Assembly (NCBI GenBank): GCA_013331805.1
Contig: DUFS01000013.1
Span: 1-10,107 of the forward strand
DNA from: Candidatus Micrarchaeota archaeon
GTDB taxonomy: Archaea > Micrarchaeota > Micrarchaeia > Anstonellales > Anstonellaceae
Direction: 5' to 3'
DNA length: 10,107 nt
Shown: piece after piece, positions 650-759 of the stretch
Layout: each line of letters opens with the position of its first letter
Numbering within the stretch: position 1 is the first letter of the stretch
Notes under the pieces: generated by a model
What the model saw: only the letters and a program-made list of their open reading frames with translations
What the model was told of the DNA's origin: nothing
Database searches by the model: none
Made by a program: the position numbers and the translations under genes

Positions 650-665
650 TATACCCCTTACGGGG

Positions 666-730
666 GCGTCAGAAGCTACTCCGTTGGGTCATCGCACAAG
701 GCTAACCCACTGGAGCGGTGTCATCATCGC
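666..730 (-). ncRNA. Box C/D guide sRNA (sRNA-1) with a non-canonical internal hairpin in place of C'/D'
   Basis: Minus strand reads GCG-AUGAUGA(box C, 727-721)-CACCGCUCCAGU(12-nt guide)-GGGUUAGCCUUGUGCGAUGACCC(hairpin)-AACGGAGUAGCUU(13-nt guide)-CUGA(box D, 672-669)-CGC. It has a terminal GCG/CGC stem, lies in an intergenic gap, has a TATA-like element about 23 nt upstream, and its guides are antisense to conserved 23S rRNA motifs. Confidence 0.8.
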
Positions 731-752: not shown

Positions 753-759
753 TATTTAT
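753..759 (-). promoter_or_regulatory. TATA box for sRNA-1
   Basis: Minus strand ATAAATA ends about 23 nt before the sRNA 5' stem at 730, the standard archaeal spacing. Confidence 0.5.

Follow-up and report, generated by a model that had tools for sequence, protein, structure and literature searches.

What does the 65-nt intergenic stretch at positions 730-666 of the minus strand encode, and on which RNA would its product act? It lies in a window that is the whole 10.1-kb contig of an archaeal metagenome-assembled genome (1.19 Mb, 83 contigs, 91.5% complete), and it carries no annotation. The public proteins nearest to the FEN-1 of this genome (52-54% identity) belong mostly to metagenome-assembled genomes labelled Candidatus Micrarchaeota; judged by this one protein, the lineage is probably Micrarchaeota (DPANN). 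The earlier note had pointed out strings on the plus strand that look like 23S rRNA targets, and both are present as described, ACTGGAGCGGT at 709-719 and AAGCTACTCCG at 673-683. We suggest that the stretch is very probably an independently transcribed archaeal box C/D sRNA gene of about 65 nt, guiding methylation of the equivalents of E. coli G2251 and U2438. Its transcription, the RNP assembly on its atypical C'/D' element and the exact methylated nucleotides are what we infer from the comparisons described below.

Read on the minus strand from 730 to 666, the gene is 5'-GCG AUGAUGA CACCGCUCCAGU GGGUUAGCCUUGUGCGAUGACCCA ACGGAGUAGCUU CUGA CGC-3'. A 3-nt stem strand is followed by box C, a 12-nt spacer, a 24-nt internal element, a further 12-nt spacer, box D and the complementary stem strand. 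Both guide spacers thus measure 12 nt: the first separates box C from the base of the internal helix, the second the end of this helix from box D. The family, as defined in the available text of Lui et al. 2018 (PMC6009581), has its box C (RUGAUGA) close to the 5' terminus and its box D (CUGA) close to the 3' terminus. The coordinates of all features are collected in Table 1. The terminal stem of the window, GCG/CGC, is in a register unlike that of all 35 relatives (GC/GC in 27 of 28 distinct sequences) and would leave a bulge of 2 nt, not 3 nt. This is because its 3' flank differs, being part of a duplicated stretch of about 83 nt. The folding stability of the naked RNA is unremarkable (z = -1.2). 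Pairing between the two guides appears in the minimum free energy fold; as a selected structure it was rejected, since G-to-A guide variants break it. The Rfam scan, an Infernal-type check proposed in the earlier note, returned no family match at E≤10 over 666-730, hence none at the gathering threshold.

Table 1. Features of the sRNA gene and of its flanks (positions in the window; sequences in RNA sense).
Feature	Position	Strand	Remarks
TATA-like box AUAAAUA (RNA sense)	753..759	-	23-29 nt upstream of the sRNA 5' G
Terminal stem, 5' strand GCG	728..730	-	sequence read; GC...GC paired in 27/28 distinct relatives
Box C AUGAUGA	721..727	-	perfect; UGAUGA invariant across 30 aligned homologues
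D' guide CACCGCUCCAGU	709..720	-	C713 = N+5, pairs with the G2251 equivalent
Non-canonical C'/D' element GGGUUAGCCUUGUGCGAUGACCCA	685..708	-	4-bp covarying helix and K-turn-like loop
D guide ACGGAGUAGCUU	673..684	-	A677 = N+5, pairs with the U2438 equivalent
Box D CUGA	669..672	-	perfect; invariant across 30 aligned homologues
Terminal stem, 3' strand CGC	666..668	-	complementary to GCG
Downstream hairpin CCCC-GUAA-GGGG	654..665	-	outside the conserved RNA; within the ~83-nt duplicated stretch 597-679

The gene is bordered by two ORFs of the same strand, one at 791-1609 (weakly SerK/SbnI-like) and one at 35-592 (weakly amidinotransferase-like). An archaeal TATA box is expected to be centred about 26 nt upstream of the start of transcription. 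In the window and 35 homologues the A/T fraction reaches about 0.9-1.0 at -29 to -23, against about 0.4-0.6 around it, and a second A/T-rich patch is found at about -10 to -4 relative to the 5' G. The presence of a TATA-like box at the expected distance in all copies argues that each copy is its own transcription unit. The copies are thus presumably transcribed independently, each from a start at the terminal stem or close to it.

With 161 nt around the locus as a query, BLAST against 60 relatives and the own genome recovers the same dual-guide RNA from 37 of the 60 relatives. The conserved part is limited to query positions of about 71-132, corresponding to window 730-669, a 62-nt core that extends from the 5' G to box D (74-94% identity). 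By this search, 21 of the 22 other genomes in the genus have the core, and so does most of the family. The flanks are unrelated among relatives, and both guides are nearly invariant. Full-length copies are recognised by regular expression at 35 of the 37 homologous loci; another (L046) is canonical by eye, and the last (L043, in G005) contains an insertion. In L043 (G005:C9, about 28085-28244) this is a segment of about 60 nt in the loop of the internal hairpin, with both guide halves intact. A strict two-guide pattern gives 66 matches in 65 of 401 genomes sampled across the phylum, and the reversed control pattern gives none in the 401. The pattern matches in 26 of 29 genomes of family f1, as well as in the own order and seven families of the same class, and in no genome of two large families (0/94 and 0/83). 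As the pattern is strict, these counts are lower bounds. Lack of conservation of the boxes and guides in relatives had been named in the earlier note as grounds for rejecting its reading; both are conserved in the homologues found in the two samples. Over 582-1561, 661-1800 and 457-690, the window is matched without a difference by contigs of three independent metagenome assemblies, one of them spanning the whole gene, so the sequence is no assembly artefact.

The internal element is the unusual part of this RNA. Box C/D sRNAs have internal D' (CUGA-like) and C' (UGAUGA-like) boxes, which fold into a K-loop or K-turn containing two G-A pairs. No CUGA-like D' box is found in the window. Internal structure was scored on an alignment of 30 long-form homologues (28 distinct sequences). 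A 4-bp Watson-Crick helix (708-705 with 686-689) is followed by a K-turn-like loop, a 2-bp stem (702-701 with 695-694) and the loop 700-696. The helix pairs 708-686, 707-687, 706-688 and 705-689 lie directly inside the guides. Their compensatory counts are GC 17/UA 11, GC 22/AU 6, GC 27/UA 1 and UA 24/CG 1/GC 1/other 2, with 0 to 2 unpaired cells per pair. The covariation score of the helix is reached by none of 500 shuffles, and slid registers are only 24-50% paired. The next pair outwards, 709-685, is unpaired in 14 of 28 sequences and therefore stands outside the helix. The internal loop sets U704 and A703 against G693, A692, U691 and G690. Here A703, A692, U691 and G690 are invariant, position 704 is U in 27 and A in 3 homologues, and position 693 is any nucleotide. 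Inward of this loop the homologues have a stem of 2-3 bp and then a variable loop. Conservation thus extends to one G-A pair (A703 with G690) and to a 3-nt NAU bulge, the remainder being the covarying Watson-Crick helix. On structural grounds we infer a K-turn remnant: NAU would correspond to the three-nucleotide bulge, and the 1b-1n sheared pair would be G690-A703. Watson-Crick pairs would stand in for the second sheared pair as well as for the U-U layer, with the kink placed one layer inward.

Homologues from other families have a canonical D' box (C/A)UGA and C' box AUGAU(G/U)A with the same 12-nt spacing. In L046 the canonical form reads CACCGCUCCAGA-CUGA-UUA-AUGAUGA-ACGGAGUAGCUU-CUGA. In some homologues a D' box AUGA is paired with a C' box AUGAUUA, which is a compensatory change from C-G to A-U. 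Where the D' box is CUGA, it begins exactly 12 nt past box C. Lui et al. 2018 (PMC6009581), in the available text, give 3-11% as the share of known sRNAs with non-canonical K-motifs. As the K-turn-like loop of the window keeps a single G-A pair and is shifted inward by one base-pair layer, both the binding of L7Ae and the N+5 ruler have to be assumed for this half of the RNA.

As the own 23S gene is not assembled (RF02540 gives no match in the 91.5%-complete genome), guide pairing was tested on the 23S rRNA of relatives only. The own 16S gene lies on contig C10 and spans 2.3 kb for a model of 1,478 positions, with a second partial SSU match beside it. Several 23S genes of relatives (L013, L014 and others) span 4.4-5.1 kb against a model of 2,987 positions, which suggests that they carry large insertions or introns.

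In 10 of 10 full 23S loci of relatives, the D' guide pairs with GCUGGGGCGGUA without interruption over 11 positions, 9 of them Watson-Crick and 2 G-U. The same motif is found in 27 of 30 shorter 23S loci, the remaining three being truncated. The earlier note had predicted 11 pairs with a single G-U; the length of the duplex stands, but there are two wobbles, since the P-loop of the relatives reads GCUGGGGCGGUA. This motif is identified as the P-loop because the E. coli row of the alignment is GACUGGGGCGGUC at this place, and because Dennis et al. 2015 (PMC4644070) equate the alignment position G2520 with E. coli G2251 in the part of the paper available to us. The fifth guide nucleotide before the base of the internal helix is C713, the N+5 position, and it makes a Watson-Crick C-G pair with the G2251 equivalent of the relatives, the partner that the earlier note had named for it. 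The guide dinucleotide opposite G2253 and G2252 (window 714-715) varies: it is CU in 27, UC in 30 and UU in 9 of the 66 matches, and all three variants keep pairing with both guanosines. CC occurs in 0 of these 66 matches, obtained with a search pattern that admitted only pyrimidines there. Hence, every variant leaves one G-U wobble or more in the P-loop duplex.

Under a simple scoring scheme a competing 16S site, AUUCGAGCGGUG, scores 19 versus 18 for the P-loop and offers 8 contiguous Watson-Crick pairs. However, it has a mismatch at N+4, beside the would-be methylation site, and the UC variant of the guide would pair worse with it. As the window has no canonical D' box, the exact site of the D' guide, G2251 or its 5' neighbour G2250, is deduced from the canonical homologues. 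The conserved guide and spacing make the G2251 equivalent the most likely site in the long form too, with a shift by one nucleotide to G2250 also possible.

The D guide is directed to the strand just 5' of the peptidyl-transferase ring. In this region the 23S rRNA of the relatives reads ...CAAGCUACCCCGGGGGUAACAGGCU..., and the target AAGCUACCCCGG lies directly 5' of GGGGGUAACAGGCU. The duplex consists of 7 Watson-Crick pairs, an A-C mismatch at guide position N+8 and 3 further Watson-Crick pairs. The earlier note had let this target end in ...ACUCCG, and it is the actual sequence of the relatives, AAGCUACCCCGG, that gives the one internal mismatch. The fifth nucleotide upstream of box D, A677, stands opposite the U of AAGCU, so that an A-U pair is formed at N+5. 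This uridine is assigned to U2438 from the alignment with the E. coli row CGGAUAAAAGGUACUCCGGGGAUAACAGGCU and from A2451, which we take to lie in the GAUAAC segment; the E. coli numbering thus depends partly on this anchor. The 2'-O-methyluridine predicted in the earlier note by the N+5 rule therefore keeps its position on the 23S rRNA of the relatives, as a predicted methylation.

By complementarity alone this assignment is only suggestive. In an unbiased scan of the own 16S rRNA, the 23S rRNA of two relatives and the detected tRNAs, AAGCUACCCCGG is tied second with a score of 16 and is the joint-best 23S site. Two 16S sites score as high or higher (17 and 16), and no tRNA site scores higher than AAGCUACCCCGG. 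The 12 tRNAs found by Aragorn offer no good site. A regular expression for peptidyl-transferase motifs of the GGGAUAAC type has no match in the 23S rRNA of the relatives, because these read GGGGGUAACAGGC. A whole-genome scan for complements of the guides is uninformative, as 12-mers with G-U allowed recur by chance. What decides is covariation between guide and target. Among the 19 genomes with both the sRNA and the 23S segment, G or A in the guide tracks C or U in the target in 19 of 19. All four genomes with the target ...CCCUGG carry the guide ACAGAG... (G003, G008 and G017 of the own genus, G046 of another), and all 15 with ...CCCCGG carry NCGGAG.... The varying target base is the tenth position, and the covariation is seen in two genera. 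The mismatched guide A is invariant. The 23S rRNA of N. equitans has U at the mismatch position, thus the guide A may be ancestral.

We propose the following sequence of events for the action of the RNA. L7Ae would bind to the terminal C/D K-turn and to the internal K-turn-like element, and Nop5 with fibrillarin would then assemble on both L7Ae-bound motifs. The two 12-nt guides would pair with nascent 23S rRNA, and fibrillarin would add a 2'-O-methyl group to the nucleotide that faces the fifth position of the guide, counted upstream from box D' or D. The D' guide would thereby place a methyl group on the P-loop guanosine equivalent to E. coli G2251, and the D guide on the U2438-equivalent uridine of the strand leading into the peptidyl-transferase ring.

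The protein machinery needed for these steps, which the earlier note had proposed to look for, is encoded in the own genome: fibrillarin (292 bits), Nop5 (192 bits) and L7Ae (97 bits) are all found above the Pfam cut-offs. No RlmB orthologue is found there; the single SpoU-family gene is TrmJ-like, scoring 172.7 bits as TrmJ/YjtD (cut-off 167.15) and 49.9 bits as RlmB (cut-off 160.15). FtsJ/RrmJ is likewise not found in the own genome, and across 61 genomes (60 relatives and the own one) there are marginal matches only, of 29.6 bits at most. Overall, the unannotated dual-guide box C/D sRNA put forward in the earlier note is backed by its boxes, spacers and promoter, by conservation, by the core proteins, by complementarity to the 23S rRNA of relatives and by the covariation of the second guide.

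Several other readings of the locus have to be weighed. The RNA might be a real box C/D sRNA whose D' half does not methylate G2251: it could act on the neighbour G2250, or do no more than hold the P-loop, as a folding chaperone or a half-mer partner, during methylation of U2438 by the D guide. We regard this as improbable. In its favour, the D' box CUGA is missing, the A-G (2b-2n) and U-U pairs are now Watson-Crick, and the remaining G-A pair is one layer further from the guide. Conserved guides unable to methylate are also described for Pyrobaculum in the available text of PMC6009581, and the G-U wobble that is always kept, with the CC variant at 0 of 66 matches, would suit such a role. However, homologues that possess a canonical D' box and K-loop share the identical guide and its 12-nt spacing, and in them N+5 is located at G2251; the N+5 pair is a Watson-Crick C-G. 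Moreover, A703, A692, U691 and G690 do not vary, as expected of a protein-binding K-turn remnant. The D guide, in turn, might have its main target in another RNA, such as a tRNA or other stable RNA that escaped assembly or detection and offers a proper A-U pair in place of the invariant A-C mismatch. The small number of tRNAs detected by Aragorn (12) means that few stable RNAs were covered by the scan, and an identical guide of M. maripaludis is listed without a predicted target by Dennis et al. 2015 (PMC4644070). Nevertheless, we consider this quite unlikely: the guide follows the 23S base in every genome of the covariation set (19/19), N. equitans, whose 23S rRNA carries U where the mismatch lies, has a nearly identical guide with the same predicted site, and neither the own 16S rRNA, the 12 tRNAs nor the 23S rRNA of relatives contains a better one.

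It is least credible that there is no RNA gene at all, and that the locus is a conserved DNA element, for example a recombination or attachment site, or resembles the boxes by chance. The duplication of the last 11 nt and 72 nt downstream elsewhere in the genome would agree with a DNA element. Against it speak the compensatory changes of the internal helix and the guide-target covariation, which are signatures of selection at the RNA level. The TATA-like box, too, is at the right distance in all 36 genes examined, and the conserved block starts at the terminal-stem nucleotides just 5' of box C and stops at box D. Hence, we retain the reading of the locus as a gene for a dual-guide sRNA directed to the P-loop and to the U2438 equivalent.

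The duplication itself has the following form. The last 11 nt of the sRNA and about 72 nt downstream (597-679, with the CCCC-GUAA-GGGG hairpin) have a second copy in the genome, about 92% identical, which runs into contig C41 of the own genome (C41:1-54). A 36-nt piece is repeated 4.3 kb away, at C41:4324-4359, where the flank that follows the shared 11-mer (GCAAUUAAUA...) resembles the normal 3' flank of the relatives. Judged by its arrangement, the duplicated stretch looks like an attachment-site-style duplication at the 3' end of an RNA gene. No integrase is found on C41, which carries only a P-type ATPase, an AAA_14/DUF4143 ATPase and a fragment of a DDE transposase.

On the other side of the gene, the relatives' loci L017, L033, L028, L032 and L031 have a tandem second promoter and box-C RNA gene about 110 nt upstream of the sRNA. 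This upstream gene starts with GCGAUGAUGACAC; it contains a hairpin with the conserved loop UCUCGCNNNGCUCGA and, in addition, a terminator-like hairpin. In these and other relatives, the CGCUCCAGUGGGUUA segment of the sRNA itself is found a second time, directly upstream of the TATA box. Neither the tandem gene nor the CGCUCCAGUGGGUUA copy is present in the genome of the window.

The window contains a second, canonical box C/D sRNA at 1666-1723 of the minus strand, about 940 nt away, with the structure GCC-GAUGAUGA-12 nt-CUGA-loop-AUGAUGU-12 nt-CUGA-GGC. Its D' guide UAUGAACAACCG makes 10 contiguous Watson-Crick pairs with the 23S A-loop of the relatives, and N+5 falls on the U2552 equivalent. 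It has a sub-threshold snoPyro_CD match in the Rfam scan, and contigs of other organisms in two metagenomes match the window at 1664-1723 only. Judging by these complementarities, the window may carry guides for both universally conserved ribose methylations of the large subunit. A third canonical candidate lies on contig C64 of the own genome, around 7145 of the minus strand, and its best rRNA complement is a 16S site with one mismatch. A regular-expression scan for canonical C/D RNAs found only these two others (1723-1666 and C64), and by design it misses the sRNA at 730-666.

What do these results mean? They add a well-supported and widely conserved family of methylation-guide RNAs to Micrarchaeota, and they suggest that a small-genome archaeon with no detectable RlmB or RrmJ uses RNA guides at the P-loop and, via the neighbouring gene, at the A-loop. 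The helix-extended C'/D' element is a natural variant for testing the K-turn and spacing rules of box C/D RNPs. Current understanding is not overturned; this is an ordinary kind of gene with an unusual internal fold. A bolder view, which we advance tentatively and hold to be possible rather than probable, is that the clade has rebuilt its C'/D' K-loop. The tandem G-A and U-U layers would have given way to a covarying Watson-Crick helix, leaving a minimal K-turn (one G-A pair, the NAU bulge and an extra unpaired U) one layer inward. Together with the A-loop guide, both universal ribose methylations of the large subunit would then be guided by RNA, and not performed by RlmB- or RrmJ-type enzymes. 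If L7Ae and Nop5 still assemble on the rebuilt element, the clade would possess a distinct box C/D architecture of natural origin, on which the setting of the N+5 ruler could be examined. If the view is true, the P-loop and A-loop would be methylated by guides via a duplex tolerating a conserved A-C mismatch, and the orphan sR106 guide of M. maripaludis would gain a target.

Finally, we compare the RNA with known systems. RlmB of bacteria and Mrm1 of mitochondria are stand-alone SPOUT methyltransferases that form Gm2251. They modify the same nucleotide as predicted here, but they are protein-only enzymes. The archaeal C/D families of Rfam (snoPyro_CD RF00095, sR1, sR14 and others) have the general architecture in common with the sRNA but give no match to it at E≤10. 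Guides for methylation of the G2251 equivalent are predicted, in the available part of PMC4644070, for T. tenax sR7, P. calidifontis sR36 and two sRNAs of M. kandleri. By the same source they would place the same P-loop 2'-O-methylguanosine via a box C/D guide, and are likened to the present RNA by this predicted site alone. They differ in that their hosts are hyperthermophilic Thermoproteota or Methanopyrus and that their second guide aims elsewhere.

The site of the D guide, too, has counterparts among the sRNAs of Dennis et al. 2015 (PMC4644070), whose target positions were taken from the table in supplementary file 1. The D guide AAGGAGUAGCUG of N. equitans sR14 is predicted there on 23S U2712 in alignment numbering. 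U2712 is the twelfth column of the block in which the E. coli row starts with CGGAUAAAAGGU, and thus the same uridine. Unlike the RNA described here, sR14 meets no mismatch, since the 23S rRNA of N. equitans has U in place of C; it also has another D' guide and degenerate boxes (AUGAAGA and CAGA). In sR106 of M. maripaludis C5 both guides are marked NP in the same work, which we read as no target predicted. One of them is the identical 12-nt guide ACGGAGUAGCUU followed by CUGA, and the 23S row of M. maripaludis reads AAGCUACCCCGG, resulting in the same A-C mismatch as here. However, in sR106 the 12-mer serves as the D' guide, it is combined with an unrelated second guide, and a canonical K-loop forms the C'/D' motif. 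The covariation shows that the conserved A-C mismatch is tolerated, therefore the identical guide of M. maripaludis can be assigned to the same site. In the literature searched, no paper held both Micrarchaeota and fibrillarin, and none both sR106 and maripaludis. The high novelty implied by the earlier note has to be reduced, as both sites are already predicted sRNA targets in other archaea; neither the two target sites nor the guide is of a new kind. The new points are the lineage, the joining of both guides in a single RNA, the atypical C'/D' element and the evidence from covariation that the duplex with the mismatch is the real interaction.
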